This document shows positions 4,638 to 30,140 of a DNA stretch of 64,000 bases, piece after piece (positions within the stretch are counted from its first letter, which is position 1; each line of letters opens with the position of its first letter). The stretch is from Flavobacteriaceae bacterium (lineage in GTDB: Bacteria > Bacteroidota > Bacteroidia > Flavobacteriales > Flavobacteriaceae): contig CBDICL010000005.1 of assembly GCA_965277255.1 (NCBI GenBank), positions 28,963-92,962 of the forward strand. The letters run 5' to 3'. The notes below the pieces were generated by a model. The model worked only from the letters and a program-made list of their open reading frames with translations, did no database searches and was not told the DNA's origin. A program made the position numbers and the translations under genes.

Positions 4638-7600
4638 TCTCTAATTGTTTTATTCTTTCCTCTTGTTCTTGAATCTTTTTAACTAAAAATGGGATTAGCT
4701 TAGTATATTTAATACCTATAAGCTGACCATCTTCTTCCTTTGTGGTTAATATAGAATCTAATTCATCAACTTCTTCTGCAATAAACCCATAATCTTTATC
4801 ACCAGTTTCTTTCCAATCATAAGATACAGGTCTTAATTTATCTATAATAGAAGTGTCTACATCTTCTTGAATGTTTTCTTTGAATCGTAGTGCTGAGGTT
4901 TCTGTTAATGAAGTACATTCTATTGTACCAACAACATCTAACTTAGCGCTAGGACTAACAGTCCCTATCCCTATATTACCATTAGATTGAATACGCATAC
5001 GTTCGTGAAATATATTTACAGTATCTCTTGTATGGATTCTAAATCCACCACCATATCCTGCACCTCCACCATCAGCAAATCCATCAATATAAAATCTTTG
5101 ATTATTACCGTTACCTCCAGTAGACGTCATATATAATTTAGGGTCATTACTCGAGCCAATAGTAATATCTCCCCCACTTGAAATGCGCATACGTTCTGCG
5201 CTGTTAGTATCAAAAACAAGGGGATGATTACTATAAGTACCTATGTGTGAGTTATCATTTTGAGCATAAGCTAATAGTGTTACGTTAGCTGTAGTATCTT
5301 TTATTGTTAAAGCAGGGGAACTTGCACTTTCTAAATGAAGCATAGAAGAAGGACTATCAGTCCCTATCCCCACGTCGACACTAGCATAAATTCTCTGAAA
5401 TGAAGTTCCTGTTGAAATAAAATCTAGTTCTCTAAAAGTAGTGCCACCTACAGTACCATTTGGAAGAGTGCCTGTCGTATATGCAGACAGTGATGCATTG
5501 TAGCCTAACAAACCATCAAAGTAAATCTCAAAAGCAACAGCATAGGCAACTGGCTTATAAACTTCTAAATAGTAAGTGCTATTAGTGGAATCAAACTGTA
5601 CTCTTGCTTTGTTTATATAGCCAAAACTTCCATATGCTTCAAGTTTTAATGTTGAGACATCCGACCAATTTTTATAAGCTTTTATCACATACGTTCCAGG
5701 CGAAAAACTTCCACCTGTTGTTGAAAGTTTAATAACTCCTCCTCCTCTGTTTGAAGACGTATTCCAAACGCCAACCCTATACCATCCTGCAGCAGCAGGT
5801 GTAGATACTGAACCTCTGGAAAGTGATATAATACCGCTTGTTTGGGTTACCCCATTAACATGTAACTTAGAAGAAGGCCCTGTAGTGCCTATTCCAACGT
5901 TGCCGCCACTTGTTATACGCATATGCTCCGCGCCTAATCTTGAAAACCTTGTGTAAGTTGTAGTATCTAAAGTAATAGCGTATCCGCTATCTAACAACAA
6001 TCCATCTGTACTTCTATTATCATATTCAATTCCAATAGAAGCATAAGCTGTAGAATTAGAATTAAACAACCATTGTATATCCCCTTTTGTTCCAGTTACA
6101 CCTGATTTAATTTTTATGTTAGCATTATTAGCGTCTAAAATAACGTTTCCTGCTACTTCTAGTTTCTCACTAGGACTATCAGTCCCTATCCCAACGTTGC
6201 CTGAATTTTCAATTCTAACCACAGGTGTAGGCGCAATATCAGCTTGAGCGGTATTCATTAGGATATCTAAGTGTTGTCTATAATCACTTGTTCCTACGGC
6301 TCTAATTATTGTCTTCGCATTAGTAGCATTAAATGCAGGAAACTGTAATTCTCTTGTACCTCCTATTGAAGGAAGATTAAATGATACGTTACCGCTCGAG
6401 TCTATGCGCATTCGTTCGGTATTGTTAGTCGCAAAAGTTAAAGGGTGATTTGTCTGTACATTTATGGTACCTGCAGAACTACCTGAATATAATGAAGTAC
6501 CAACTGTATTGTTAGCATTTGAAACTCTAATTAATCCAGTTCCTGTTCCAGTAGCTCCTCTAACTTCCAAAGTTTTAGATGTTGCACCATAAGACGTTGG
6601 ACTCGTAGTACCTATCCCTACGTTGCCCTCACTCGTTATGTGCATTCGTGGTGTGGCGTTGGTGTATAGTACAAGAGAATGATTAGTAATTGTTCCTATA
6701 ATACCTTCATCCGAGCCAGTAACTCCTAAAATATTTGTTACATTTGGAGAAGTATATCTAATTTGATTTCCTGCAGGACCATTAACGTGTAACTTTGTTG
6801 AAGGACTCGTAGTCCCTATTCCCAATCTTGCAGTACTAGCATCCCAGTAGAAAGCTTCGTTAGCTGAAGTATCTCTAAAGGATATGTCGCCTCCCTGAAG
6901 GATACGCATACGTTCTGAACCTGCATTTTTATAAACAAAATCAACCCCTCCAGAACTGAAAGTTGATGCAATTCCAACTTCTCCATTTGTATCATCAAGG
7001 TAAAATGAAGCTCTCCTGTTATTAGTTCCTTCATTAGAATAAAGTGAATATCCTAAAACATCTCCATCTGTTTGACTTTGTAAATAAACTCCCCTGTCTA
7101 AAGTTGGAGTAGTAGCTTTAGAAGTTCCACCAATACGTAAGTCGCCACTCGAATCTATACGCATACGTTCTACACCCGTAGTAACAAAACCTAATGTATT
7201 AAAGGCAGGTCTATAAAATCCTGTATCTACATCTCCAATTCCTATAGCAACTTTTGATACAGTTCCTACCGACGCTGTAGTGTCTCCAACTTGAAATATA
7301 GCTTCTGGGTCATTTACGTTTATCCCAACGTTGCCACCAGATTTTAAAAATAATTGATTGTAATCAGTTTCAGTCCCCCTAAATTCCATATTCCCAGAAG
7401 AGGAAAAAATAAAAGCAGAATTATTTCCATTACTTTCGGAAAATATAGCTTGCCTATTTGGACCTATTTTTGCAGTCCCTACTACATCTAATTTAGCACT
7501 CGGACTTGAACCAGCCCCTATCCCAACATTAGTCCCATTATCATATATAATAGAATTTGTTAAGGTATCAGTATCTAGCCATTTACTTATATAATTTGTA

Positions 7601-8667
7601 GTACCCGAACCATTTAAATCTGATTCAGATATTCCTGTAAAATGTACTACTTCAATAGAAGCTCCATCTGCAGGGGCATCTGTAAATGTCAATGTTGTAC
7701 CCGAAGTGGAATAATTATCTTTTGATTGATAAACACCATCAATATATATTTGTGTAGCAACCTCTTCAGATATAGCACTACTTAAGGTGAAGGCTGTTTC
7801 TACAGCGTCTCCAGTAAATGAATCAACATCTATGCTTGCTGCATTAGCACCACCAATAGGTGCCCATTCAGTTCCATTGTACCCTTCAAATTCATTTGTT
7901 GTAGTATTAAACCTAAACATCCCAGAAGCCGGGGTAGGCCTGTCACTTGTCAATCCTTTTGGTACTTGTATTGCATCTGTTCCTGAAATATCTAAGCTAA
8001 CAGAAGGGGTTATGGTGTTTATTCCTACGTTGCTATTTAATTCATCTAAATGGACAATGGTAGAAACAGTTGTATTACCATCCCCAACCCATATTTTACC
8101 TTCTGGTAAATTAGGTATATCGTTTGTTCTTAAAATAGCAGAAACAACTAAAGACCCGTTTGATCCATGAACCCTTGCAACTTTTGCAATGTTTTGTATT
8201 AACGCAGTTCCAGTAGGCTTAGTTAATGTTAAACCTCCTCCAGACTTTACATAAACAGTTTGGTTGGCAGTAGGTGTTTGTCCATCAATTGTTGCGGTAG
8301 CTAAGTTTTCTAAAAGCCCTGCTTGTACACAAAATCCTTCACCGTTGTCAGATAAAGTACTTTCTAACAGCCCCAACACAGGCATTTTATTTACATTACC
8401 AGCATCAGCAGCAGCAATTTCAATCTTACCTGAATTACCTGTTTCTCCTGTTATATAAACTGGTGTTCCTTTTGAAATGGATACACCAGATGTATTTTTT
8501 ACGGGTATGTGAACTGATTCTGAATTATCAGCAGAAGCGGCTGCTGCACTACCAAATGTTAGGTTCCCCCCCCCATCAGTAATAATTGCCTGGCCAACAG
8601 ATCCATCGGTGTTTGGAAATGTATACTCACCGTTTATGTTTATGGTATCTTTAAATTTAACAGCCAT
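4624..8667 (-). CDS. Long tail fibre/adhesin with C-terminal peptidase S74-type intramolecular chaperone
   Basis: 1347 aa; about 9 (N/G)VGIGTxxP repeats and ERMRI motifs; C-terminal TSALRFKENI...LRPVSYDWK...GFIAEEV...YTKLIPFLVKKIQE chaperone signature. Confidence 0.88.
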   Translation of the reverse strand: MAVKFKDTININGEYTFPNTDGSVGQAIITDGGGNLTFGSAAAASADNSESVHIPVKNTSGVSISKGTPVYITGETGNSGKIEIAAADAGNVNKMPVLGLLESTLSDNGEGFCVQAGLLENLATATIDGQTPTANQTVYVKSGGGLTLTKPTGTALIQNIAKVARVHGSNGSLVVSAILRTNDIPNLPEGKIWVGDGNTTVSTIVHLDELNSNVGINTITPSVSLDISGTDAIQVPKGLTSDRPTPASGMFRFNTTTNEFEGYNGTEWAPIGGANAASIDVDSFTGDAVETAFTLSSAISEEVATQIYIDGVYQSKDNYSTSGTTLTFTDAPADGASIEVVHFTGISESDLNGSGTTNYISKWLDTDTLTNSIIYDNGTNVGIGAGSSPSAKLDVVGTAKIGPNRQAIFSESNGNNSAFIFSSSGNMEFRGTETDYNQLFLKSGGNVGINVNDPEAIFQVGDTTASVGTVSKVAIGIGDVDTGFYRPAFNTLGFVTTGVERMRIDSSGDLRIGGTSKATTPTLDRGVYLQSQTDGDVLGYSLYSNEGTNNRRASFYLDDTNGEVGIASTFSSGGVDFVYKNAGSERMRILQGGDISFRDTSANEAFYWDASTARLGIGTTSPSTKLHVNGPAGNQIRYTSPNVTNILGVTGSDEGIIGTITNHSLVLYTNATPRMHITSEGNVGIGTTSPTSYGATSKTLEVRGATGTGTGLIRVSNANNTVGTSLYSGSSAGTINVQTNHPLTFATNNTERMRIDSSGNVSFNLPSIGGTRELQFPAFNATNAKTIIRAVGTSDYRQHLDILMNTAQADIAPTPVVRIENSGNVGIGTDSPSEKLEVAGNVILDANNANIKIKSGVTGTKGDIQWLFNSNSTAYASIGIEYDNRSTDGLLLDSGYAITLDTTTYTRFSRLGAEHMRITSGGNVGIGTTGPSSKLHVNGVTQTSGIISLSRGSVSTPAAAGWYRVGVWNTSSNRGGGVIKLSTTGGSFSPGTYVIKAYKNWSDVSTLKLEAYGSFGYINKARVQFDSTNSTYYLEVYKPVAYAVAFEIYFDGLLGYNASLSAYTTGTLPNGTVGGTTFRELDFISTGTSFQRIYASVDVGIGTDSPSSMLHLESASSPALTIKDTTANVTLLAYAQNDNSHIGTYSNHPLVFDTNSAERMRISSGGDITIGSSNDPKLYMTSTGGNGNNQRFYIDGFADGGGAGYGGGFRIHTRDTVNIFHERMRIQSNGNIGIGTVSPSAKLDVVGTIECTSLTETSALRFKENIQEDVDTSIIDKLRPVSYDWKETGDKDYGFIAEEVDELDSILTTKEEDGQLIGIKYTKLIPFLVKKIQEQEERIKQLENGKS

Positions 8668-8683
8668 GCTATTTTAATATATT

Positions 8684-10006
8684 TTAATACATTTTTTGAA
8701 TAAGTACTCTTAATCCTCCAACTACTGGTATATTACCGGCTATATTTGCTACAGTAACTGCTACAGTATTTAAAGTGGGTCTTGTTACATCTAACATAAC
8801 AGTTTCATAAGTGCTAGTATCATATACTTGTACAATTACATCCCTTGTTTCAAAGTTATGAGTTATAGTAAAAGAGGTAGATGAATTATCACCAACACTA
8901 GCAACTACTTGATCTTTTCCGGTAACTATATTATAATAATTAGTTCCATCTTCTGTAATTTGCCATTTATCTGTTGACTCTTCCCATCTTAATTGCACAT
9001 TTGTAGAAGTGCCTCTTTCAATTTCAATACCACCATTTTCACTTGGAGCGTCAGTTACATTACTATTAAGTAATATAATGTTATCCGCTATTGTAAGTGT
9101 TTCTGATTTTACTGTAGTCGTAGTTCCTTCTACTACTAAATCACCCCATACAGTTAAATTTTTTGCATTACTAGCATCTCCAATAATTGTATTACCGTTT
9201 AACTGTACTGTATTAGTTGCACCAGCAACACCAGTTATAAAGTTACCATTTATAGTTAAGTCAGCATTGTTGCCAGATGTACCAAGCGTTGTGTCACCAT
9301 ATATAGTTACTGTATCTGTACCAGCAAAACCGTCTCTACCTAATTCAGTAGTACCTTTAACTGTTAAACTAGCATCACCCGCAATACCCGTTTCTCCCGA
9401 CGGAGGGTTTATTGCCGCTTCATTTTGAATGATTACATCTGAAGGCAAACCTATTTTAATTACTGCACCTTCTGTAATACCAGGATTTAATTGTTCTGCT
9501 GGCGTTCCATAAACATCAGTATCATCTGAGAACACGTCAATTTCATTTGAAGTACCTGAAATAGTAACAAATTCTTTTAAGTATTCAAAAATGTGCTTAC
9601 TACGTACAAGAAATTCGCCTTTATCACCATTAGCTGGTATATCTTCATATATACTATCAGTTTCTAAAACCCTAAGGTCTACAATTCCATGATCATGACT
9701 ACCATTACCTCCTGTATTAGTTCCCGTATCAGATTCATTAACCTCAACAAGCGGCGGATTGTTTGATGCACCAGGAGTAGATGCAGATACTATTCCATTT
9801 ACATTTATAGAATTACCCTCTATTGTGTGTAAATCACCAACAGGTTGCCAATCTGAACCGTCGTATACATATATATTTTCATCCGTAGAATTGTAATATA
9901 TTTGCCCCAGTGCTGGAGAGGATGGGGCAGTAGCTAAAGGTTGAAGAACAGCATTTTGTAATTCATTCTTATTAAGATCAATATTGTTTAAATACTTTAT
10001 AGACAT
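8684..10006 (-). CDS. Structural, tail-associated protein
   Basis: 440 aa, G/T/N-rich beta-strand composition; GQIYYNST motif; located between fibre genes. Confidence 0.7.
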   Translation of the reverse strand: MSIKYLNNIDLNKNELQNAVLQPLATAPSSPALGQIYYNSTDENIYVYDGSDWQPVGDLHTIEGNSINVNGIVSASTPGASNNPPLVEVNESDTGTNTGGNGSHDHGIVDLRVLETDSIYEDIPANGDKGEFLVRSKHIFEYLKEFVTISGTSNEIDVFSDDTDVYGTPAEQLNPGITEGAVIKIGLPSDVIIQNEAAINPPSGETGIAGDASLTVKGTTELGRDGFAGTDTVTIYGDTTLGTSGNNADLTINGNFITGVAGATNTVQLNGNTIIGDASNAKNLTVWGDLVVEGTTTTVKSETLTIADNIILLNSNVTDAPSENGGIEIERGTSTNVQLRWEESTDKWQITEDGTNYYNIVTGKDQVVASVGDNSSTSFTITHNFETRDVIVQVYDTSTYETVMLDVTRPTLNTVAVTVANIAGNIPVVGGLRVLIQKMY

Positions 10007-10013
10007 GGTTTTG

Positions 10014-10349
10014 TTAGTTTAAATACGCTTTTCCAGAAAAAGGCGCTGTGAATGTTAATGTTATTTGGTTTATGTTATTATAGTTTATATATCCTACGAC
10101 AACATTGCCTGAAGAATCTACAACTGTTACTGATGGATGTCTTTCTAAATCGTGTTGTATAGTCCAGACTGAAGAGGCAGAAGACTGTATAAATGTATAT
10201 GTAGAATTAAATACTAAATCTTCTACAAATTCAGCTATACGTGTTAAGGTAAAATTTACAGTTGCGTTTAAATTGTCGCTATCTGTACCAATTACTTTAT
10301 CTTCTCCAGATAAGTGTGTGTCTTTTGTATAAGTGGATATTCTAGCCAT
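10014..10349 (-). CDS. Small structural protein
   Basis: Likely start MARISTY at 10349; C-terminal WTIQHDLERHPSVTVVDSSG...FSGKAYLN resembles the C-terminus of 8684..10006. Confidence 0.7.
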   Translation of the reverse strand: MARISTYTKDTHLSGEDKVIGTDSDNLNATVNFTLTRIAEFVEDLVFNSTYTFIQSSASSVWTIQHDLERHPSVTVVDSSGNVVVGYINYNNINQITLTFTAPFSGKAYLN

Positions 10350-10809
10350 TTTTATCTTCTTTTTTAACGGCAGATCCAAAATAATAACCAAATATACTTA
10401 GAGCAACACCTTCAACAATACCAATCATGTGAATAAAGATTTCTTTATTTGTTTCTGGTACTTGTGTAGTCACTACAGTATATACTAAAAAACCAAAAGC
10501 AGATAATCCAACAACACCCGTTAGGGTCATCATCCAATCCCTACCTCCTGATGCAATAATTGCAGCCTCACGCTTTCTAGCTGAATCTCTATCTTCTACT
10601 TCTAAACGATATAATTCAACCAATTGATCGTGTGCTGCAGCTTTTTCATCTTCAGTCATATCAGGATCACCATCAATAAGATTTTTCAATACACCCATCA
10701 TGCCGCTATCTGGCAAGAATTTAGATGCACCTTTAACAACACCAGGCAAAACACCCGTAAGTATTTTACCTAATCCTGTATCTTTGAAAGGCTTTTTAGT
10801 TTCACTCAT
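10342..10809 (-). CDS. Holin-like membrane protein (3TM/GTA-holin type)
   Basis: Two hydrophobic helices ending in SIFGYYFGS; near the peptidase gene. Confidence 0.6.
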   Translation of the reverse strand: MSETKKPFKDTGLGKILTGVLPGVVKGASKFLPDSGMMGVLKNLIDGDPDMTEDEKAAAHDQLVELYRLEVEDRDSARKREAAIIASGGRDWMMTLTGVVGLSAFGFLVYTVVTTQVPETNKEIFIHMIGIVEGVALSIFGYYFGSAVKKEDKNG

Positions 10810-11087
10810 TATTTTTTCTTTCTACCTGTTCTAGTTTTTCCTGCTACAGCAGCTGGAATATCACCTAATTGGTTTCCAACTTCTTTTACAGCGTCTTTTA
10901 CATCTTGCATCTCTTGAACTACTCTTTTAGCTCTTTCTTTAATTTCAGCTGCAGCTTCTTCTGCAACATCTGCAATCATGTCTTTATCATCATCTTTAAT
11001 TTTACCAGTATACATATATACTAAATAAAAGTTTAATAAGATTGATAAAATAGAAATTGTGATTAGTGTAATAGTTAGTGTATTCAT
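10809..11087 (-). CDS. N-terminal TM plus coiled-coil protein (paralog of 40055..40333)
   Basis: 62/92 residues identical to 40055..40333 by manual alignment. Confidence 0.85.
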   Translation of the reverse strand: MNTLTITLITISILSILLNFYLVYMYTGKIKDDDKDMIADVAEEAAAEIKERAKRVVQEMQDVKDAVKEVGNQLGDIPAAVAGKTRTGRKKK

Positions 11088-11102
11088 AATATAAAATTTA
11101 AA

Positions 11103-11435
11103 TTAACAGTTCCATCTTCTACGAGCAGCTTTACCTCTTTCTGAGGACCAGCTTTTTGATCTCGCACAAAATGCTTTTCTTCTTTTAGCAGCTTTACTTC
11201 CAGGCTTTAATTCACTAGGAGGTGTTGTTACTGCTGTCTTTAGTTTACTTCCAGGATTATCACGTCTATATTTAGCCGTACCTTTAGCTGTCATTCCTCC
11301 GCCTGCAGCAGCACCTGTTCCAGTTGGTTTAGCTTCATTATAGTATCCTAATGATTTCTTTTTAGACGGAGCTGGCGGTTTAGCTTTCTTAAATAAAGGC
11401 GATTGCTGAACTCTTGATGTAATTGGCTTATTCAT
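11103..11435 (-). CDS. Basic conserved phage protein
   Basis: 110 aa, K/R-rich; GGGMTAKG..KYRRDNPGSKLKTAVT...RRKAFCAR...AARRRWNC. Confidence 0.8.
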   Translation of the reverse strand: MNKPITSRVQQSPLFKKAKPPAPSKKKSLGYYNEAKPTGTGAAAGGGMTAKGTAKYRRDNPGSKLKTAVTTPPSELKPGSKAAKRRKAFCARSKSWSSERGKAARRRWNC

Positions 11436-11807
11436 TTGTAATGTTTATATATTTAGTCCTGCCATTTTCTTTAATAGCTTTTAGTACTCGCATCCTATTG
11501 TTACCAAGTCGGTAACTAACATGCACCCATGCGGGGTTATATACACGTCATCAATATCAATAGCTTCTCCTAAGCAGTGTTGTGATGTTTTACTACCGCC
11601 TATTGCTTGGTTCAATTCAGGGGAGCGATAAAATGAAGAAACATATATTTGTTCATTAAAATGATTTCTTAATGGCTCAAATACATGTTCAGATGTAATT
11701 TGCATTGTAATCAGCGTTTCATTATCAGGCATATTACTTATGCTTAATCTTTCAGCTGTATTAGAGCGTACAGCCTCTTTTAAGGAGATATGTTCGCTAA
11801 TCCTCAT
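11428..11807 (-). pseudogene. Peptidase M15-type endolysin interrupted by a frameshifting internal deletion at 11540/11541
   Basis: Frame 1 reads MRISEHISLKE...SFYRSPELNQAIGGSKTSQHCLGEAIDIDDVY. The canonical C-terminus NPAWVHVSY...RVLKAIKENGRTKY continues in another frame and stops at 11428. Confidence 0.85.
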
Positions 11808-11808
11808 A

Positions 11809-11928
11809 CTACTTCTTATTTCCTCTTTTAGCGCAACCACAGCTTCCTATGGGCTTCATGCAAGTTTCACAAACTTTACTTGGAGCTTTCTTCTGTGCGT
11901 GTACTTTTTTTGTAATAGGTAAATCCAT
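11809..11928 (-). CDS. 39-aa basic, Cys-rich peptide (below ORF-track cut-off)
   Basis: MDLPITKKVHAQKKAPSKVCETCMKPIGSCGCAKRGNKK fills the gap between neighbours exactly. Confidence 0.6.
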   Translation of the reverse strand: MDLPITKKVHAQKKAPSKVCETCMKPIGSCGCAKRGNKK

Positions 11929-11930
11929 GA

Positions 11931-12254
11931 TTATTTTTTCTTTTGTTTGTTATAAGCTTCAGCTTCCCACTCTAATTTAGGAAAGCCCTCTTTCATTGTT
12001 TTTCTAGGATATTTTTTTCCTTTCCAATATACATTATCTTCATCATAGCTTAGGTCTTTTCTAAGTATTTGATCTCTATGTACTTTTTCATGGCTTAATG
12101 CTATTTTTTGTTGTACTGGAGATAACTTACTATTAATATAAATAGTACCATCACCTTCAGTAACACCATGCACACCATCTTCCATTGGAGTTTTTACTAC
12201 TTTACCGTTTGTCATTATAATATTTTCAACGGTATTTTTCATTTTATATCCCAT
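11931..12254 (-). CDS. Small HExxH metallopeptidase-like protein
   Basis: GTIYINSKL...IALSHEKVH...EWEAEAY. Confidence 0.6.
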   Translation of the reverse strand: MGYKMKNTVENIIMTNGKVVKTPMEDGVHGVTEGDGTIYINSKLSPVQQKIALSHEKVHRDQILRKDLSYDEDNVYWKGKKYPRKTMKEGFPKLEWEAEAYNKQKKK

Positions 12255-12694
12255 TATCTATTTGGATCTTTAATCATTTGTTCTATAGCAGAATTAAATA
12301 CTTTTTCTGTATAAGATTTGTTTTTATTAAAAACACTTCTTTGTGAGATTGGTAAATCTTCTTGCCCTAAAAGTATTCTATATATTCTAGAAACAAGGTG
12401 CTTACACTGCGTCGAAACTTCGTAAACATTATATTTAATCGTTGTATGGTTCCTTTTAGTGTATACTTTGATCCATCCATTTTTTCTAAGCTTTTCCCAC
12501 CTGTGTTTATCCCAAGTGTGTATATATGTTCCTTTTATGTAATCATCACGTGTAAATTTACCTATACAATCAAAATGAATAAGTAATTCTAATTCGCCAT
12601 CTGTTAATCCATAAGTTTTACAGGCCCATTTGCGAACGAGCCTGTAATATTTAAATAATCCTATCTCTTTTATATCCGCTGCCTCTAGTCTCAT
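12254..12694 (-). CDS. Hypothetical protein (possible winged helix)
   Basis: 146 aa, coupled to neighbours; LTDGELELLIHF...WEKLRKNGWIKV. Confidence 0.7.
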   Translation of the reverse strand: MRLEAADIKEIGLFKYYRLVRKWACKTYGLTDGELELLIHFDCIGKFTRDDYIKGTYIHTWDKHRWEKLRKNGWIKVYTKRNHTTIKYNVYEVSTQCKHLVSRIYRILLGQEDLPISQRSVFNKNKSYTEKVFNSAIEQMIKDPNR

Positions 12695-12951
12695 AAAACC
12701 ACTACAACATCTTGTTCTCTTATTACTTGTAAGTATTCCCCATCAAAATCTATACCATACCCAGCGTGCCGGTCATAATAAATATAGTCTCCTGTAGAAA
12801 TTCCCTCAACGTAATTACCAACAGACCTAACTTCAGCTTTTCTATATCGTATATCATCTTGATGTTTTTCAGTAAGAATAAGTCCACCTTTGTTTGGCTT
12901 TGGCTCTTCTTTAATTGATTTTATTATAATAAATTTATTTACAGCCTTCAT
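12691..12951 (-). CDS. groES: Co-chaperonin GroES (Cpn10)
   Basis: KAVNKFIIIK...GGLILTE...AEVRSVG...GDYIYY...GEYLQVIREQDV; adjacent to groEL. Confidence 0.9.
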   Translation of the reverse strand: MKAVNKFIIIKSIKEEPKPNKGGLILTEKHQDDIRYRKAEVRSVGNYVEGISTGDYIYYDRHAGYGIDFDGEYLQVIREQDVVVVL

Positions 12952-14498
12952 TATTCTCTAACATTAGATATTACACAATTTGCTGACATTATAGTTGTAG
13001 CAACAGATATTGCATTTTTTAATGCTGTTTTTGTTACAAGCACGGGATCTATAATTCCTTCTTTAAGTAAATTACAACTTTCACCTGTTATAACGTTAAT
13101 GCCCCACCCTTTTTTATGGTATGGACCATATGCGATACCTGCATTAATAAGAATTGTTTTGTATGGAGCTTTGATAGCTTCTTGTAGTATTTTTCCGCCA
13201 TTACCGTTGGCGCTAATATTATCAGCTGCATTATGCAAAGCAATACCAGCACCGGGAACAATACCCTCACGTAACGCTGCTTTAACAGCATAAATAGCAT
13301 CTTCAACACGATCTTTCTTTTCTTTTAATTCAATTTCAGAATCAGCTCCTACATATATAATACCAACTGATCCAGATAGCATGGCTTTTCTTTCTTCAAG
13401 CTTTTTCTTAACATAAGGATTTGCCTCTTCCTTAAACTGACTATCTATTTCTAATATTCTTTCTTTTATTTGGTCTGTTTGTTCCCCAACGGTTATTACA
13501 GTATTATTGTCATCTGTAACAGCTCTTGCTGCAGAACCTAAAAAACTTTCATCTATTAAATCTAAATCATCACCTAACTCTTCGCTAATTACTTTAGCTC
13601 CTGTGATTATAGCTAAATCCTCAAGCATATCTCTACGTGTAAGAGAAAACCCGGGAGGATCAATAACATTTACTTTTATATGTCCTTTAACTTTATTCAT
13701 TATTAAAGCTGAAAGAGGTTGTGCAGCAATATTCCCAACTATAAGCATGGGTCTTTTACTTTTAATAGCAAATTCTAATACAGCTTGTATTTTTCTTATT
13801 GTTGTAATTTCAGAATCAACCAACAATACTAAAGGATCATCTAATACAGCTTTATTTTTTTCTTTATCTGTTATAAGATGTGGTGACTTTAAACCTGAAT
13901 CAAATTGCACTCCATCTACGATTTCAACGTGCGTTTCATTAGTTTCAGAGTCGTCCATCAATACCACACCATTATCGCCAACTTTCTTATAAGCGTCTGC
14001 AATAATGTTACCTAAAACTTTGTCGTTATTTGTAGAAATTTGTGCAACATGGTTTAACATATCACCCTTAACTTTTACAGCAGAACTTTCTAGGTATCTA
14101 ATTACTTTTTTAGCTGTTATGTTTAGATCTTCTTTAATTTTTCTTAAATCAGGATCTTTTTGATTCCAGTATTCTTTTAATATAGAGTGAGCAAGGACGG
14201 TACTAGTCGTAGTACCATCACCTGCTTCTTTAACTGTTTTTTGAGCTGCCTCTTTAATGAGGGTTGCACCTATGTTTTCTACAGAATCCATAAGCACCAC
14301 GCTATTAGCAACAGTAACTCCATCTTTTGTGACTATAGGCTTTCCTAATGCATCTTCATATATAACACATTTACCAGAGGCACCTAGTGTTGACGATACA
14401 GCATTAGTAAGTTTTTCAACACCAGCCATAATTTTGTTTTGCGCGTCTGCGCTAAAAGTAAGATCTTTTACAATCTCACTTGGATGATTAAATTGCAT
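12951..14498 (-). CDS. groEL: Chaperonin GroEL (Cpn60), phage type without GGM tail
   Basis: TKDGVTVA, AGDGTTT, ERVED-like DRVEDAIYAVKAA, GIVPGAG, GIIDPVLVTKTAL. Confidence 0.96.
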   Translation of the reverse strand: MQFNHPSEIVKDLTFSADAQNKIMAGVEKLTNAVSSTLGASGKCVIYEDALGKPIVTKDGVTVANSVVLMDSVENIGATLIKEAAQKTVKEAGDGTTTSTVLAHSILKEYWNQKDPDLRKIKEDLNITAKKVIRYLESSAVKVKGDMLNHVAQISTNNDKVLGNIIADAYKKVGDNGVVLMDDSETNETHVEIVDGVQFDSGLKSPHLITDKEKNKAVLDDPLVLLVDSEITTIRKIQAVLEFAIKSKRPMLIVGNIAAQPLSALIMNKVKGHIKVNVIDPPGFSLTRRDMLEDLAIITGAKVISEELGDDLDLIDESFLGSAARAVTDDNNTVITVGEQTDQIKERILEIDSQFKEEANPYVKKKLEERKAMLSGSVGIIYVGADSEIELKEKKDRVEDAIYAVKAALREGIVPGAGIALHNAADNISANGNGGKILQEAIKAPYKTILINAGIAYGPYHKKGWGINVITGESCNLLKEGIIDPVLVTKTALKNAISVATTIMSANCVISNVRE

Positions 14499-14518
14499 TA
14501 AATTATATTTTAAATTAG

Positions 14519-14809
14519 TTATTTGAATGTTTTAACTACTACAGGTCCTTCTAAAGATTTTAATCTTTTGTTGTAGTGGTCAATAGAAGAATCAATTGCT
14601 TTTTCAGCTTCTTCTACAGTTTCACGCCTTGTAACGCTAGTCCATCCGCCATCTTCTATATTAAACTCTGTTTGATAGAATCCGTTTGGTAATTGGGTAA
14701 TTCTCCAGTTTTTCTTTTTTGATAAATTTTTCCACTGGTTTTTGGCCTCTTCGGATACTTGTGGTTCTGAATTGGTCCATGAGTTAGTTTTGTAATAAAA
14801 ATAAGTCAT
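14519..14809 (-). CDS. Hypothetical protein
   Basis: 96 aa ORF in the operon. Confidence 0.75.
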   Translation of the reverse strand: MTYFYYKTNSWTNSEPQVSEEAKNQWKNLSKKKNWRITQLPNGFYQTEFNIEDGGWTSVTRRETVEEAEKAIDSSIDHYNKRLKSLEGPVVVKTFK

Positions 14810-14842
14810 TTTTTTTGGTTTTTTGGTTAATAAAAAGTTTTG

Positions 14843-15100
14843 TCACCATTTAGCAGCGGGACACTGCGAAGCAGGAGATAAAGCTTTAGCTGCTATATTG
14901 CAGCCGCATCCCTTAACAAACTCTCCTGTTATTTGGTTTTTAATTTGGCTATTTGGGTCACAAACATTATTTTTACGCACTGGGCAGACATTACAGTGAA
15001 CAAGTCTTATTGATGCAATTCTTTTTGTATTTTCATCCAATAAGCCAAATTTGTCTTTTACAAGATTTGCCCACCCGGTTAGTATATTATTTAGCTGCAT
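14843..15100 (-). CDS. Cys-rich small protein
   Basis: CNVCP...C...GCGC...CPAAKW metal-binding pattern. Confidence 0.7.
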   Translation of the reverse strand: MQLNNILTGWANLVKDKFGLLDENTKRIASIRLVHCNVCPVRKNNVCDPNSQIKNQITGEFVKGCGCNIAAKALSPASQCPAAKW

Positions 15101-15106
15101 TTTTTT

Positions 15107-15379
15107 CTATTCAGTAGCAACAAGTTCTTCTTGCTCATCTTCAACAGGTGTTAATTCCCCAGTTGTTATGTCTAATGTAGATTTACCATGCTCTTCTTCA
15201 ATTTCTTTTACAATCTCATTCATTTTGTTTTGAATGACAGAGTATTCTGAAAGTAAAGCGCTTTTTTGAAAACTGTATTGCATTTCTAAATCTCCAAGAC
15301 TATTTTTAATTTTTGCAATTGCTGAATAGTTTTCTTGAACTTTTTTAAGTTCTTTTTCTGATAATTTTTGTTTTTCCAT
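15107..15379 (-). CDS. Coiled-coil hypothetical protein
   Basis: 90 aa with heptad pattern and acidic tail. Confidence 0.75.
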   Translation of the reverse strand: MEKQKLSEKELKKVQENYSAIAKIKNSLGDLEMQYSFQKSALLSEYSVIQNKMNEIVKEIEEEHGKSTLDITTGELTPVEDEQEELVATE

Positions 15380-15422
15380 TTTATTAAATATTAATTAATT
15401 GTTATATAGTATATTACGAATA

Positions 15423-15776
15423 TTATTCATTATTTATGTCTTCAACTATTTCATTTGTAGCTCCTATTGTTTTAGTCACTACCGTGGGTGTTACTTGTTC
15501 TGCAATTTGAGCATCTATACTAGTTTTTAATTCAGCAACTCTTTCTTCTCCTAATGCTGTTTCAACCCATCCATTAATATCTTCTTCCGTAATATCAACA
15601 AATGCTGTAAAATTAGAAAGGTCTGAAGTTTCTAAAGATTGGGTTCCGTAAGTGCTACCTACGTTTCCATTTTCGTCTTCTCCTGTAAGTCTCCAATGAA
15701 CATTAAAGATTACGTCGTTATTACCCTCTAGTGTAGGGTAAGTATCTACTGTTTTGTTATCCCAAGTGTAAGTCAT
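15423..15776 (-). CDS. Small fibre-associated protein (paralog of 17442..17786)
   Basis: Shared TY.W...DVI..(V/I).(W/F)...G.D...F.....(I/L)TE.D(I/V)..WV pattern. Confidence 0.75.
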   Translation of the reverse strand: MTYTWDNKTVDTYPTLEGNNDVIFNVHWRLTGEDENGNVGSTYGTQSLETSDLSNFTAFVDITEEDINGWVETALGEERVAELKTSIDAQIAEQVTPTVVTKTIGATNEIVEDINNE

Positions 15777-15821
15777 TATTTATTTATTTATTTGTAAAAA
15801 TTTTTAAATTATATCATCGTA

Positions 15822-16340
15822 TTAAATAATTGAATCCCAAGTTTGTTCGTCTTCACTCCAAATATATGGCTTACCATCATTTGGTATTGGTATTGGTGGA
15901 ACCCATTCCCATTTTTCTTCATTCCAACTCCAAGAATTGTATATTTTTTTAGGAATATATAAATCCCATTGCATTAAATTTTCATTCCAAGTATAAGGTT
16001 TACCATCATCTGGATAATCAATAGTGGATTCCCAAAGACAAGTTTCTTCATTTAATATCCAAGAATCAAAAAGTTTAGGCGGAATAAATGCATCTCGCGT
16101 TTCATCATAAATAAATCCAATACCAGCATAATTTTTACGAAATCCGTTTTTTACACTTACCTCTTGTGTAATTACACTAAAGTGCTTCCCTCCAAATGTA
16201 TTATAAGAAGTTCTTTTACAAGTTTTACCAAATTGATTACCATAAAATTGCTCCCAATCTTGTGAATTGTCAGATTCATCAATTCCACTTATAACTTGCA
16301 TTACAACATTATTTTCATCAAGTATTGCGTAGTGTGCCAT
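15822..16340 (-). CDS. 'MAHYA' family protein with extra Trp-rich C-terminal repeat
   Basis: Paralog of 3188..3559; repeated PxDGKPYxWxE motif. Confidence 0.85.
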   Translation of the reverse strand: MAHYAILDENNVVMQVISGIDESDNSQDWEQFYGNQFGKTCKRTSYNTFGGKHFSVITQEVSVKNGFRKNYAGIGFIYDETRDAFIPPKLFDSWILNEETCLWESTIDYPDDGKPYTWNENLMQWDLYIPKKIYNSWSWNEEKWEWVPPIPIPNDGKPYIWSEDEQTWDSII

Positions 16341-16341
16341 A

Positions 16342-17439
16342 TTAATTAAATTGTATGTTACCGCTTCCGCTTGTTATTATTGTAACATTAAAACTACCAT
16401 CAGCTGAAGTATTTCCACTTAATCCAGACCCTATTGTTATTGTATATGAGTTTGGGTATCTTAAAACAACAACGCCTGAACCTCCATTTCCACCGCCAGG
16501 ACCAATTCCATAAATTGAAGAAGTAGTGTTTCCGTTATGTGCTCCACCACCCCCACCAAGATTAGGCGTTCCATCTCTTCCAGTGCCATAATAAGGATAA
16601 GAAGTGTAACCTCCATTACCACCGCCACCTGCACCTCCATCACCACTGTATTGGGGATAACCAGAATATGATGCACCACCACCTCCTCCTCCATAATAAG
16701 CAGAAGTACCAGTAATTGCAACAGCTACTCCATTTCCACCATCTCCAGCAACAATTGAACTCCCAGCAACAGAACCGCCCTTTGCACCTGTTCCACCTCC
16801 TCCAGCGCCAGCAACTCCCGCATATGTAGTGTCCCCATCAGTACTGTAATAAACTATCTGGCCCAAACCATTATAAATATTTCTTTGAGAATCCCCACCT
16901 TCATACCCTTGATTTGCAGTTCCAAGATTTCCCCAAGTTGCTCTTGCACCACCACCCCCACAACCTCCGTTAGTTGAGGGTACAGCTGTAAAGGTATTGT
17001 TAAAATATCCTCTACCGCGCCCACCACCAATTGAAGTAATTGTGTGAAATACACTATTTGAACCATCTGAATAAACTGAAGAATGACCTGTTCCACCTCC
17101 TCCAATGGTGATTGAATAATTTGTTCCAGTTTGAAGAGCGATTTGGGTTTCTGATGAAGCACCCCCACCTGAAGTTGTGCCATAGGAAGTTCTTAATCCG
17201 CCTGCACCCCCGCCTCCTGCAGGAAATGTTTGATTAGTAAAAGAAGAAAACCCGCCTGCACCACCACCAGCAACAACGAGATAATCAACCAATAAGGGTT
17301 GATAACCATAAAATTCGCTTATAGCGTCAGGAGTTGATTTACCAGCGGCAGCCGATAAAGTTCTTAAAGAACCACTTGAGTTACCTAACTCTGTTTTTAT
17401 ATCACCTATAGATAAAGGTCCGCTGCTAGGTAAAGCCAT
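16342..17439 (-). CDS. Glycine-rich virion/fibre-associated protein
   Basis: MALPSSGPLSIGDIKTEL N-terminus, VDYLVVAGGG, GGSGVVVLRYP. Confidence 0.85.
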   Translation of the reverse strand: MALPSSGPLSIGDIKTELGNSSGSLRTLSAAAGKSTPDAISEFYGYQPLLVDYLVVAGGGAGGFSSFTNQTFPAGGGGAGGLRTSYGTTSGGGASSETQIALQTGTNYSITIGGGGTGHSSVYSDGSNSVFHTITSIGGGRGRGYFNNTFTAVPSTNGGCGGGGARATWGNLGTANQGYEGGDSQRNIYNGLGQIVYYSTDGDTTYAGVAGAGGGGTGAKGGSVAGSSIVAGDGGNGVAVAITGTSAYYGGGGGGASYSGYPQYSGDGGAGGGGNGGYTSYPYYGTGRDGTPNLGGGGGAHNGNTTSSIYGIGPGGGNGGSGVVVLRYPNSYTITIGSGLSGNTSADGSFNVTIITSGSGNIQFN

Positions 17440-17441
17440 TA

Positions 17442-17786
17442 CTATTCAGGTATTTGTTCTGCGGGTGCCCATGGCATATCTGCTTCTACGTTAGTCGGAG
17501 ATACTTTTTGGGTAATTGCTTTTGTGATAACTTCATTCATGTGATCTGTAGGATGATTTGCTTTTACCCACTCAATAACATCTGCTTCTGTTAAAGAAGC
17601 TAACTCTGTAAAGTTTTCCGTATCAGGCAAGCCAATAGGGCAAGCTCCAGGAAAAACGTGTGTTTCCCCAGAATCTGCATCTGTACCCGTATAATCAAAT
17701 CTAATATGTGTGATAACATCTGACAACCCCTCAAGCACTGGCGCTTTTTTCATAGCCGTTATTTTCCAATCGTATGTAATATTCAT
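17442..17786 (-). CDS. Small fibre-associated protein
   Basis: Paralog of 15423..15776; immediately downstream of the fibre gene. Confidence 0.75.
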   Translation of the reverse strand: MNITYDWKITAMKKAPVLEGLSDVITHIRFDYTGTDADSGETHVFPGACPIGLPDTENFTELASLTEADVIEWVKANHPTDHMNEVITKAITQKVSPTNVEADMPWAPAEQIPE

Positions 17787-17810
17787 AATACTTATTTAAA
17801 ATTTTAATAA

Positions 17811-20800
17811 TTATTTATTTTCTAACGCTTTAACTTTATCTGAAAGTTCTTTTATTGCTTCAATAAGCAAAGGTACTAATTTTTCGTATTTAACAGCCTT
17901 ATATCCGTTATCTCTTGTATTTACTATTTCAGGTGCAATTTTTTCAACTTCTTGTGCAATTATACCAATATCATGACCTTCATAAACATCTTGCTTATCA
18001 TTCCAATCAAACTCAACACCATTTAATGATTCAACTTTTTTAAGAGCATTTTCAATATTTTTCTTATTGTCTTTAAGCCTTTCGTCTGAAGAAGAATAAG
18101 CAACTACATCCCCATTAAAATGAGCGTTTCCTGTTCCAGAAATACTAGCTACTAGATTTGTGCTGTGCTTAAATATCCAACCCCTAGATGTAGACCCGCT
18201 CATAGTGAAATAAGTAGCCCAATCACCTGTAACAGAACCATGCGTCCCTAAACTTGTTCCTGTAAATAATAATCCGTACGTCGGTTCAGCTGTACTATAT
18301 CCACCATAAAGAGATATACCATGCCTACTTGTGCTGCTTGAGCTCCTATTGACACCTATTCTCGTGGTATGCACAGCATTTAAATTGGTAGCAGCCTTAG
18401 GCTCTAAATAATACCCAGTGTTATCAGAATCGTAGAAGATAGGGGCTCTTAAACTAGAAACACCATAGCCAATACCCCAATAATGATTAGAAAAACTTGT
18501 TGAAGTCCCGGCTCTCCAATACCAATTTTGTGGTGTTTGACTAGTACTTGCGGTATTATTACAATATCTATAATTTACATGCATAGTATTTGATCCAGCC
18601 CCAATCATCATTTCACTACCAAATCCTTTAAGCTCTAAAGTATGATACGCATAATTTCTACCAAGTTTAGCATCCCCAGAGACTGCGGAACTTGATATTA
18701 TCTCATTTAAGCTTATAGAACCTATGTTACTAAGGCTTTGCGGATCTAAATAATACCCAGTATTATCAGAATCGTAGAAGATAGGGGCGCGTAAATCACC
18801 TCCTGAGTAGGGGGCTTGGCCAAACATGACAAATTCTTTCCATGCATCATAGTCATTACTCCAGCCAGTTCTAGCCCAAATTCCATTTCCATCTGTAGCA
18901 TTATGTGGTGCGTATAATTGAAATTTATTTGCCGCACCAATAGAAAAATTTAATTCAGTACCATAAGCATAAGCAGAAGGCCTGTTTGAGCCCGTCGCAT
19001 TATTAACTCTATACCAGCCTGCTTCAGTCCCATCAATATAAGTATTCCAATCTTGAGTACTTATGATACCTCTATATCTTATATCAGTTGCATCAACAAC
19101 TTGCACTTGAACATTATTTATATAAAGATTTTTATTAAAATAAAAAGCAGGTCTATCAGTATATATATGTGCCCATGTGGAATTGGCTGGCCCTAATTGT
19201 ATATAGCCGCTATCTGTTTGATGTAAAGTACCCCAGTCGCCGTGGTTTACAAACCTACCGTTGTTAGAAGAACTAGGGCTTTTAAGTTGTGAGTAATCTA
19301 TTACGTTTATTCTACTTGTACTTGCAGGATGTAAATAATACGAAGTGTTATCAGAGTCGTAGAAGATAGGAGCACGCATGTCAACATTAGCAGTGACAGA
19401 ACCCCCACTCGTTATGCTCATTCGTTCGGTGTTGTTAGTTCTAAGAATAAGAGGTCTACCTCCTCCTGCTGCTCCAGAATCTATGTTTAACCCAAAACTT
19501 TCATATATACGAGAACGATGGCTTAAGGTTGTATCTGAACCAAAAGTAACTCCACCGTTTACTTGAAGATTATCAGCAGGACTAACAGTCCCTATCCCTA
19601 CATTACCGCTTGTGGATAGAAACATTGCGTTTGCGTTAGTGTTAGGGTGAAAAGCTATTGGTCCGTTACTGGTATATATGTTTAACGCGCTTACTCCTCC
19701 CCATGAGCTATAAGATGTACCAGCTTTCCATATTTGTCCCAACCCGGAGTTAGTATTAAAAATAACACTAGAATAAGATGTAGTGGAAGAAGCGTCCCCT
19801 ATATTTACGTTACTATTAGCTGCAGTTGATCTAAATTTGGCAACACTATCGACAGAAGAAATTACCTCTAATTTAGAGCTAGGATTAGTACCCCCTATTC
19901 CTACATTGCCCCCACCGGCAGCTATAGCAATGTTATCGCTAGAGTACCAATTTAATCCTAATATACCCCCACTAGAATCTATTATTAGATACCCACTATC
20001 ATCTGTTCCTGCCTTAATAGTAGGCTGTCCGCTATACCTACCTAATGTTAAAGTTGCTGATGCAGAAGTTGCATCTATAAAGCTATTTCCAGATACATGT
20101 AATTTATATCCAGGATTTGTAGTGCCTATTCCAACGTTGCCTGCAATCGGTTGTAATAATAAGTTTTTCCAACCAGTGCCGTTATGTACAACGCCAATAA
20201 ATCCAGCGTCCGCTGTAGCATTGTAACCCATATTAATCCCTTTAGCAGTTATACCTGCCGCAAGTGATATATTGTATGCTGCGCCAAAATCTCCACTTCC
20301 AACGTAATTACCAAAAGCTCCTTTACCTCCAACCAATAATCCGCTACTTGAAGCAGCACCTGTCGTGCCTATTGATGCATTGCCAATTATATGCAACTTA
20401 GAAGTAGGGCTCGTAGTCCCTATCCCAACGTTTAAATTATCATCAATACAAAAAGCATCCCCTTCAGTACCTGATGCCCAAGTAACCATAAAAGGGTATG
20501 TTCCTCCATTCCCGCCAGATTTTATAGATAACCCATTATTAGAAACAGCACCTTCAATTTTAAGTTTAGCATTAGGACTCGTAGTCCCAATTCCTACGTT
20601 GCCGCTAGAATTGATAACCATACGTGGACTTGCTGAACCCGCAACATCTACAAATGAAAAACCACCATTATCAGACATATCTATTCTCGTTTGAATAGTG
20701 CCTGTTTCATCTATATATCTAATTTGACTTGAAGCAGCTCCTTTTAAATCCAAAAACGGAATACCACTTGGATGTGTTGATTCTATTCTTACTGCTGGAG

Positions 20801-20996
20801 TTGAGCCTACAGATGATATATGAAGTTGAGTAGCAGGACTATCAGTCCCTATCCCAACGCTATTAGTAGAAGAATCAACAAATAAAGTGTTAGTGTCAAC
20901 TGTAAGGTCGCCTGTAATAGCTATATTAGTATCCAGCTTTGCTGAGGTTACCGCCCCGTCTTTTAATACCGATGTTGAAACTTGAGTTATAGCCAT
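17811..20996 (-). CDS. Long tail fibre/adhesin 2 with S74-type chaperone
   Basis: 1061 aa; GNVGIGTxxP repeats; three RAPIFYDSDNT(G/S)YY repeats; C-terminal SSDERLKDN...LNGVEFDW...GIIAQEVE...VKYEKLVPLLIEAIKEL. Confidence 0.9.
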   Translation of the reverse strand: MAITQVSTSVLKDGAVTSAKLDTNIAITGDLTVDTNTLFVDSSTNSVGIGTDSPATQLHISSVGSTPAVRIESTHPSGIPFLDLKGAASSQIRYIDETGTIQTRIDMSDNGGFSFVDVAGSASPRMVINSSGNVGIGTTSPNAKLKIEGAVSNNGLSIKSGGNGGTYPFMVTWASGTEGDAFCIDDNLNVGIGTTSPTSKLHIIGNASIGTTGAASSSGLLVGGKGAFGNYVGSGDFGAAYNISLAAGITAKGINMGYNATADAGFIGVVHNGTGWKNLLLQPIAGNVGIGTTNPGYKLHVSGNSFIDATSASATLTLGRYSGQPTIKAGTDDSGYLIIDSSGGILGLNWYSSDNIAIAAGGGNVGIGGTNPSSKLEVISSVDSVAKFRSTAANSNVNIGDASSTTSYSSVIFNTNSGLGQIWKAGTSYSSWGGVSALNIYTSNGPIAFHPNTNANAMFLSTSGNVGIGTVSPADNLQVNGGVTFGSDTTLSHRSRIYESFGLNIDSGAAGGGRPLILRTNNTERMSITSGGSVTANVDMRAPIFYDSDNTSYYLHPASTSRINVIDYSQLKSPSSSNNGRFVNHGDWGTLHQTDSGYIQLGPANSTWAHIYTDRPAFYFNKNLYINNVQVQVVDATDIRYRGIISTQDWNTYIDGTEAGWYRVNNATGSNRPSAYAYGTELNFSIGAANKFQLYAPHNATDGNGIWARTGWSNDYDAWKEFVMFGQAPYSGGDLRAPIFYDSDNTGYYLDPQSLSNIGSISLNEIISSSAVSGDAKLGRNYAYHTLELKGFGSEMMIGAGSNTMHVNYRYCNNTASTSQTPQNWYWRAGTSTSFSNHYWGIGYGVSSLRAPIFYDSDNTGYYLEPKAATNLNAVHTTRIGVNRSSSSTSRHGISLYGGYSTAEPTYGLLFTGTSLGTHGSVTGDWATYFTMSGSTSRGWIFKHSTNLVASISGTGNAHFNGDVVAYSSSDERLKDNKKNIENALKKVESLNGVEFDWNDKQDVYEGHDIGIIAQEVEKIAPEIVNTRDNGYKAVKYEKLVPLLIEAIKELSDKVKALENK

Positions 20997-29579: not shown

Positions 29580-30140
29580 ATGAGTATTAAACAAAAACTA
29601 AGTTCAATTCAACAAGATTTTAAAGCAAAAAAATCTCGTTACAACTCATTCGGTAAGTACAACTTTAGATCTGCCGAGGACATTCTGGAAGCATTAAAAC
29701 CTATGAATAAAAAGCATGGAGTTTATTTTACGATTAGCGAAGAGCTAATTGCAAGTGATCCTATGCCTATTATTAAAAGTACGGCTAAAATAGTTGATGC
29801 TAAAGATGGTGATTCTATTCAAGCTGAAGCAATTGTTGGTGTAGATTTAAATCAAAAAGGTATGCAAGTACCTCAACAGTTTGGTTCTGCGTCTAGTTAT
29901 GCTAAAAAATATTCATTAGGTAATTTATTACTTATTGATGATACGGCTGATTCTGATGCAACAAATACTGGAGGCAACCAACCTAAAAGTAATTTAGTTA
30001 GAAATACGGCTAAACCTGAAATTAATATGGATAACATTGAACAAGCTAAGAAATTTTTAGCAAGTGGAGGTTCTATAGAAACATTGCATGAAAAATACAC
30101 TATTAGCCCAACTATGTTGAAAATATTAAAAAATGGATAA
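29580..30140 (+). CDS. ERF-family ssDNA annealing protein
   Basis: YNSFGKYNFRSAEDILEALKP...QQFGSASSYAKKYSLGNLLLIDD..DSD. Confidence 0.88.
   Translation: MSIKQKLSSIQQDFKAKKSRYNSFGKYNFRSAEDILEALKPMNKKHGVYFTISEELIASDPMPIIKSTAKIVDAKDGDSIQAEAIVGVDLNQKGMQVPQQFGSASSYAKKYSLGNLLLIDDTADSDATNTGGNQPKSNLVRNTAKPEINMDNIEQAKKFLASGGSIETLHEKYTISPTMLKILKNG

Follow-up and report, generated by a model that had tools for sequence, protein, structure and literature searches.

The DNA analysed here, called the window, is a stretch of 64,000 nucleotides (nt) from a flavobacterial genome assembly (4.48 Mb in 25 contigs, 99.8% complete), in which it occupies positions 28963–92962 of a 117-kb contig, C7. The region is phage DNA and carries terminase-side genes and two large tail fibre genes, g1 and g2, together with a GroEL/GroES pair, a sigma factor, an ERF-family protein, an exonuclease, a primase-helicase, a thymidylate synthase and a ribonucleotide reductase. 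This work concerns short motifs that recur within the two fibre genes, and whose DNA had been proposed in a preliminary description of the window to provide short homology handles for the swapping of fibre modules.

Fibre gene g1, 4624–8667, minus strand: 1347 amino acids (aa); conserved N-terminal anchor (aa 1–211), 8 junction motifs, 7 ERMRI-type motifs and a C-terminal Peptidase_S74 domain.
Fibre gene g2, 17811–20996, minus strand: 1061 aa; 6 junction motifs, 2 ERM-type motifs, 3 RAPIFYDSDNT repeats and a C-terminal Peptidase_S74 domain with SDERLK.

Both genes would encode trimeric β-helix tail fibres with self-cleaving S74 chaperone ends. The Pfam matches of the fibres were Peptidase_S74 and DUF4183 only, with E-values for PF13884 (Peptidase_S74) of 4e-16 in g2 and 1.5e-8 in g1. 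The cleavage-site motif, S-D-x-x-x-K in the S74 consensus, reads SDERLK in g2 and is replaced at the equivalent place in g1 (window 4624–4800) by SALRFK, which lacks the Asp; self-cleavage of g1 may differ or have been lost.

The junction motif, x-G-N-V-G-I-G-T-x-S-P, was found in 14 in-frame copies, 8 in g1 and 6 in g2, and a second, E-R-M-R-I-type motif in about nine, lying a few residues upstream of some of the junction copies. The motif copies all lie on one strand and in the same orientation, as direct repeats. BLASTN comparison of g1 with g2, and of block with block, detected no DNA similarity beyond the motifs, as expected from the earlier claim that the blocks are dissimilar while the DNA of the junctions is conserved.

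A search of the species-representative genomes of the host family, which has at least 200 genera in the reference set, yielded no close relatives, with only the chaperone end matching, at 30–57%, and in the INPHARED phage collection the sole match was one of 58 nt to a cyanophage. The useful relatives were metagenome contigs reached through protein search, and the DNA of four of these (L149, L150, L151 and L152) was compared with the window. L151 is a 33-kb scaffold with both fibre genes and a backbone 96.5–98.7% identical to the window, the backbone of L152 is 93–97% identical, L150 matches at 97% from the g2 chaperone domain on through the genes downstream, and L149 has one g2 block in common with the window. 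The motif copies are listed below with what these relatives show at each of them.

g1 junction 1, 8002–8037, minus strand: NSNVGINTITPS; longer by 832 nt in L151 and by 811 nt in L152, the added sequence having motif copies on both sides.
g1 junction 2, 7501–7536, minus strand: GTNVGIGAGSSP; 98% identity to L151 stops inside it, at window position 7512.
g1 junction 3, 7303–7338, minus strand: GGNVGINVNDPE.
g1 junction 4, 6595–6630, minus strand: EGNVGIGTTSPT.
g1 junction 5, 6169–6204, minus strand: SGNVGIGTDSPS; matches g2 junction 1 at 25/25; a block in common with L150 stops 15 nt past it.
g1 junction 6, 5872–5907, minus strand: GGNVGIGTTGPS; matches g2 junction 4 at 24/24; a block in common with L152 and L150 (93–94%) begins.
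g1 junction 7, 5347–5382, minus strand: SVDVGIGTDSPS; the block shared with L152 and L150 ends, and a block of the L151 gene at the g2 position begins.
g1 junction 8, 4948–4983, minus strand: NGNIGIGTVSPS; 1275 additional nt in L151, the flanking matches overlapping by 22 nt on the motif; matches g2 junction 6 at 29/30.
g2 junction 1, 20832–20867, minus strand: TNSVGIGTDSPA; matches to two separate parts of L149 overlap precisely here, at g2 nt 139–161.
g2 junction 2, 20571–20606, minus strand: SGNVGIGTTSPN; end of the L149 block and start of an L150 block.
g2 junction 3, 20403–20438, minus strand: NLNVGIGTTSPT; end of the L150 block.
g2 junction 4, 20109–20144, minus strand: AGNVGIGTTNPG.
g2 junction 5, 19878–19913, minus strand: GGNVGIGGTNPS; an L150 block (87%) begins inside it.
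g2 junction 6, 19575–19610, minus strand: SGNVGIGTVSPA; the L150 block stops inside it.
g1 ERMRI motif at aa 1158, a second handle class, 5182–5196, minus strand: GAA CGT ATG CGC ATT; two L151 blocks start or end within 1 and 11 nt.
Other g1 ERMRI-type copies, 7156–7170, 6901–6915, 6637–6651, 6403–6417, 5914–5928 and 4990–5004, minus strand.
g2 ERMSI motif at aa 524, 19413–19427, minus strand: 20/21 match to g1 6409–6429; an L151 block begins 12 nt upstream.
Second g2 ERM-type copy (PRMVI), 20613–20627, minus strand.
RAPIFYDSDNT repeat, a third junction class in distal g2, 18381–18456, 18723–18798 and 19308–19383, minus strand: RAPIFYDSDNTGYYL.

At the protein level, both fibres matched the solved mosaic adhesive trimer (MAT) fibres of Bdellovibrio (8OND, which is Bd2133, 8OJN and 8OL4), with a residue-for-residue alignment over ERMRIxxSGN(V/L)G(I/L)GTxxPxxxLHV. 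Caulton et al. 2024 described intertwined trimeric β-helix domains whose edges are closed by capping loops, and printed the capping-loop consensus as V-G-G/N-pi-x-x-P-x-x-x-L, in S74 and non-S74 fibres (PMC10769870). The window motif fits this published consensus except at one position. By this alignment the motif appears to be conserved because it caps each β-helix domain, so that a joint placed there would preserve both frame and fold, and by analogy with the solved homologues the window fibres are probably intertwined trimers.

The DNA matches between motif copies that had been quoted in the preliminary description proved exact: positions 6172–6196 match 20835–20859 at 25/25 and 5350–5374 at 24/25, 4951–4980 match 19578–19607 at 29/30, 5881–5904 match 20118–20141 at 24/24, and 6409–6429 match 19419–19439 at 20/21. 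We compared the silent sites of the 14 junction copies with a null in which the peptides were kept and the codons were redrawn 1000 times from either the usage of the phage or the usage of the fibres with the motifs removed. Codon identity at same-residue positions was 0.60 against a null of 0.39–0.40 (z 6.7–7.5; null maximum 0.52), well beyond what the shared peptide and the codon usage would give, which bears out the earlier argument that protein constraint alone would not fix the silent positions. The excess was confined to a 12-codon core, as the six codons on each side, which include the conserved K-L-H-V, were at the null level (0.46 vs 0.41–0.43 and 0.45 vs 0.44–0.47). The identity does not stem from a recent duplication of whole blocks, a reading ruled out by these null-level flanking codons and by the lack of DNA similarity from block to block. 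Exact in-register runs of at least 20 nt were present in 5/91 copy pairs, whereas the 1000 null simulations gave 0.09 such pairs on average and never more than 3, and the simulated probability of a longest run of at least 25 nt was 0.005. The near-identical pairs quoted earlier are thus the upper tail of the distribution of run lengths.

Codon tallies also agreed with the observation that the junctions use GGG and CGT/CGC codons that are otherwise rare. GGG makes up 8% of Gly codons in the other open reading frames (ORFs) of the window and 10% in the host, and it was found at the two Gly of G-I-G in 9/14 and 9/12 motif copies; the motif Ile was ATA in 13/14 copies and the Thr ACT in 10/11. In the xRMx[IV] motifs, all Arg codons were CGN (13/13), while elsewhere AGA accounts for 54–70% of Arg codons.

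Protein searches showed both fibres to be mosaic, with matches 60–96% identical over only 9–26% of the query, and with match ends that clustered at the GIG motifs, the ERMRI motifs, the RAPIFYDSDNT repeats and the start of the S74 domain. At the RAPIFYDSDNT(G/S)YYL repeats of distal g2, the protein-level block ends of homologues clustered at aa 735–737 and 847–851. At the DNA level, the four relatives matched the window within the fibres in discrete blocks only, at 83–98% identity. Eleven of the 31 internal block ends fell inside a motif window (9% expected, binomial P = 4e-5), and 21 of the 31 lay no more than 10 nt from a motif (14% expected, binomial P = 2e-11); alignment of metagenomic fibres therefore places the breakpoints at the junctions.

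Several joints could be followed individually. At g1 junction 1, where L151 and L152 carry their additional sequence between two motif copies, a three-way alignment showed that the window switches from the left-copy match to the right-copy match inside N-S-N-V-G-I. At g1 junction 8, the overlap of the two matches that flank the L151 insertion falls exactly on the motif. L152 lacks the 364 nt that separate g1 junctions 7 and 8, a block present only in the window, and the matches that flank it overlap by 35 nt. At g2 junction 1, the two L149 segments that meet with an overlap lie ~800 nt apart in L149. L150 has a single fibre gene, at the g2 position, in which a block corresponding to g2 aa 129–197 is followed further on by g1 744–838, g2 363–470, g1 921–1107 and g2 961–1062, with two neighbouring block pairs overlapping at motifs by 48 and 23 nt. 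The L151 gene at the g2 position likewise contains one block 84% identical to g1 aa 1094–1166. Blocks therefore move both between the two fibre genes and between genomes, and together with the silent-site excess and the clustered breakpoints these moves support the earlier proposal that the junctions are short homology handles for the swapping of fibre modules.

The spelling shared by the motif copies is specific to the lineage. In the window, this DNA "dialect" reads GGC AAC GTW GGR ATA GGG ACT nnn AGT CCT, with CGN for Arg in ERMRI, and the same dialect was found in 34 motif copies of the four relatives, whose RM-motif Arg codons were mostly CGN (16/20 for the first Arg and 15/15 for the second). 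We further scanned IMG/VR with a degenerate pattern covering every synonymous spelling of GNVGIGTxxP, which gave at least 221 copies in ORFs of at least 150 aa. Among the matches listed, the codons of the motif copies tracked the GC content of their own locus, GGG was not preferred in AT-rich loci (7/41 and 4/41), and codon identity between loci, with one copy taken per locus, was 0.38, which is the null level; among the same listed matches, 12/17 loci with at least three copies had z > 2, each with its own consensus spelling. A universal DNA handle was ruled out by the dependence of codons on locus GC and by the null-level identity between loci among these listed IMG/VR matches.

A control within the same host was provided by contigs C10 (45841–55241) and C21 (7198–16521), which carry five more large fibre genes with NVGIGTxSP, three of them with an SDxRxK chaperone end. 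These genes encode the identical peptide mostly as AAC GTC GGG ATC GGG ACG ACT TCG CCT, and ATA for Ile, the rule in the window fibres (13/14 copies), was used in 0/8 copies on C10 (P = 3e-5). A different spelling in the same host, with the same tRNA pool, argues against host codon selection and towards homogenisation within a recombining lineage. Motif copies with Thr as ACT and Ser as AGT contain a 5-bp palindrome, GGACT nnn AGTCC (for example at 6173–6185 and 20836–20848), from which a small hairpin could arise in RNA or single-stranded DNA; the palindrome is probably incidental, because other dialects (ACG ... TCG) do not have it.

From these comparisons we have good confidence that the two fibre genes, composed of unrelated blocks, exchange whole blocks at in-phase motif repeats, and that the dialect arises from homogenisation. 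Each fibre would be a chain of unrelated β-helix blocks, every one closed by the capping-loop peptide G-N-V-G-I-G-T-x-S-P-x-x-K-L-x-V, which is often preceded by E-R-M-R-I; since every block has this peptide in the same reading phase, the genes would contain short direct DNA repeats of ~8–30 nt. Homologous recombination or annealing would join repeats of the same gene, repeats of g1 and g2, or repeats of related phages that co-infect or reside in one host, and whole blocks would be deleted, duplicated, inserted or swapped with frame and fold intact. Repeated exchange would homogenise the silent sites of the repeats (concerted evolution) and so give the lineage a dialect of its own. Block exchange of this kind probably alters host range, and uniform handles may have been favoured by selection instead of being an exchange by-product only. 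A bolder proposal is that the dialects act as recombination compatibility codes, such that phages with like spelling trade blocks and those with other spelling in the same host stay isolated, the spelling being kept by second-order selection for the evolvability of host range and not only by passive gene conversion; we put this forward as a tentative and rather unlikely extension.

Several observations weigh against block exchange at the motifs as we read it. The median exact run between motif copies was 8 nt, most copy pairs being merely similar, and ~8 nt is short even for annealing proteins, which makes a single joint a weak substrate; exchange at any one pair would therefore be rare and visible only after selection. 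GGG at both motif glycines is common to the window phage and the unrelated C10 element, and a host-level codon preference could still underlie these two GGG codons. The 31 block ends are not independent, as some events are common to L151 and L152, and BLAST matches run into conserved motifs by themselves, so that the ends show that whole inter-motif blocks are shared and locate the crossover to the motif, not to the base. Finally, the relatives are metagenome contigs, among which an occasional assembly chimera is conceivable; against chimeras stand the repeats, which are far below the assembly k-mer size, the agreement of two independent contigs at g1 junction 1, and the open frames throughout.

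The alternative that fares best, although we consider it improbable, is that recombination is illegitimate and may occur anywhere, with selection keeping only those chimeras that are joined at domain boundaries, so that the DNA identity of the motif is irrelevant. The motif is indeed a structural domain cap, joints elsewhere would probably misfold, and the exact identity between most copies is short. This alternative fails to explain why silent-site homogenisation is confined to the core, why one dialect extends across the lineage in 48 copies, and why the same effect appears in the 12/17 other phage loci among the matches listed; moreover, the joints are always in register, and the flanking matches overlap by 22–48 nt. 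More doubtful still is a role in translation, in which uniform rare codons (GGG and CGN) would be selected, for example because a ribosome pause at the capping loop aids co-translational folding of the trimer, and recombination would be incidental. GGG and CGN are rare in both phage and host, and GGG-x-GGG is common to the C10 element of the same host, as this idea would have it, but the identical peptide is written with other Val, Ile, Thr and Ser codons on C10 and C21, homogenisation in other AT-rich lineages has settled on common codons (GGT ATA GGT ACT in L051 and GGT ATT GGT ACT in L064), the AT-rich IMG/VR loci among the matches listed show the lack of preference for GGG given above, and the idea is silent on breakpoints.

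The absence of any nucleotide-level signal, with matches arising by chance from a near-invariant peptide and from codons such as ATA, ACT and CCT that are common in this genome, is hardly credible and was rejected by the simulations described above, none of which exceeded a codon identity of 0.52. Equally remote is a programmed generator of diversity acting on the repeats, either a diversity-generating retroelement (DGR) or an invertase-driven shufflon; such systems do usually act on fibre genes, but the enzymes are absent, as detailed below, the motif copies are all direct repeats on one strand, and the relatives differ by indels or replacements of whole blocks, not by adenine-directed substitutions or inversions, and we rejected it.

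Block exchange at the motifs would be served by recombination genes of the phage itself. As had been reported, genes for an ERF protein and an exonuclease are both encoded, and profile matches showed that they are adjacent.

ERF-family single-strand annealing protein, 29580–30140, plus strand: 186 aa; phrog_155 (8e-40) and PF04404 (1e-36).
PD-(D/E)XK exonuclease, 30133–30864, plus strand: 243 aa; phrog_412, exonuclease VIII (5e-30), and PF12684 (1e-22); overlaps the erf stop by 8 nt.

This pair may catalyse the fibre exchanges. In line with the earlier statement that no invertase or reverse transcriptase is present, a search for RVT_1 (reverse transcriptase) found no match in the whole 99.8%-complete genome, and no serine resolvase/invertase or tyrosine recombinase/integrase was found on C7, the matches to these families lying on other contigs only. 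The preliminary description had gone one step further and considered the junctions a candidate module-shuffling system. The part of this claim that concerns handles for swapping holds, and nothing indicates a dedicated system: the handles are a structural capping-loop motif exploited by general homologous recombination.

Recombination partners are at hand in the second related phage on C7 and in the further fibre genes of the assembly. C7 consists of two phage genomes of ~63 kb each, related but non-identical and arranged head to tail, with self-matches at offsets of ~62.5–65.5 kb and identities from 66% to 99%. This arrangement may represent a hetero-concatemer, a tandem double lysogen, or an assembly join between two co-resident phages. 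One homologous fibre found by protein search is labelled Polaribacter sp., and the host is likely a marine member of the Flavobacteriaceae.

Two neighbours of the fibre genes may be recorded here. The Cpn60/Cpn10 (GroEL/GroES) pair lies between the two fibre genes (window 12691–14498, minus strand) and is kept in L151 (3977–5784). The gene 3' of g2 (16342–17439, minus strand, 365 aa) contains many runs of Gly codons (repeat family D8, TGCACCACCACCCCCAC-like) and is 97% conserved in L150.

Tail fibres set the host range of phages, and their fast diversification is a practical question for phage ecology and engineering. The window and its relatives offer an unusually clean natural record of it, with near-identical backbones, fibres that differ by whole β-helix blocks, and in-frame joints at a 30-nt motif. 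The joints correspond to capping loops defined by structure, in a fibre superfamily that is very widespread, numbers thousands of homologues and also includes the cellular MAT fibres, and they offer natural places at which to splice chimeric fibres for phage-host pairs in the laboratory. Within-lineage homogenisation of silent sites is, in addition, a measurable signature of phages that belong to one recombining pool.

Other systems also diversify the distal parts of tail fibres. The invertase switches (Gin of Mu, Cin of P1 and Min of p15B) require a site-specific recombinase and inverted sites, and DGRs require a reverse transcriptase and a template repeat, none of which is present here, where the repeats are direct. 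A closer parallel in mechanism comes from De Paepe et al. 2014, who reported that relaxed recombination by phage Rad52-like recombinases (Red-beta, RecT and Erf) drives mosaicism, and that short, diverged homology is recombined much more efficiently by the Erf/Exo pair of phage D3 than by RecA (PMC3945230). Like the phages of that study, the window phage has adjacent Erf and exonuclease genes, and its exchanges take place at short imperfect homologies between related phages; the homologies in the window are mostly below 30 nt, whereas 700 bp were tested for the short, diverged lambda-Rac region (PMC3945230).

The MAT fibres of Bdellovibrio bacteriovorus and other S74-chaperone fibres have the same peptide motif, trimeric β-helix domains, capping loops, mosaic tips and S74 end (PMC10769870). 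MAT fibres belong to a cellular predator, and their description deals with protein mosaicism and structure (PMC10769870), whereas the window adds a phage case with DNA-level handles, breakpoints and a dialect. In a term search of the main text of Caulton et al. 2024 (PMC10769870), "recombination" occurred in the methods only, and a literature search for the peptide string (NVGIGT, GNVGIG and NVGIG) returned nothing relevant.

The nearest known counterpart is found in the T-even phages, for which passages of Trojet et al. 2011 (PMC3157838), citing Tetart et al. 1996/1998, describe exchange at conserved adhesin motifs in gp37/gp38. There, according to the same passages, the conserved motifs of gp37 and the glycine-rich motifs of gp38 separate variable segments of a host-recognition protein, as the short motifs do in the window, and natural as well as laboratory chimeric adhesins arose from exchanges in or near conserved motifs (PMC3157838), the breakpoints in the window likewise lying at motifs. 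No sequence relationship to the T-even adhesins was detected, a weak match of the S74 region to 6F45 being the only T-even-like match of the fibres in the PDB, and the blocks of the window are β-helix domains of 60–180 aa instead of loops. The window fibres resemble the T-even case in how they work, yet they fall outside the gp37/gp38 families. They also differ in having at least 14 handles distributed over two genes, moves between these genes, and a measured silent-site dialect. The window is thus a clear new example of a known way in which phages reshuffle their host-recognition proteins, and it extends the T-even examples by a different and very widespread fibre architecture, by many handles over two genes, by transfer between genes, and by a homogenisation of silent sites that is seen in most of the multi-copy loci sampled.

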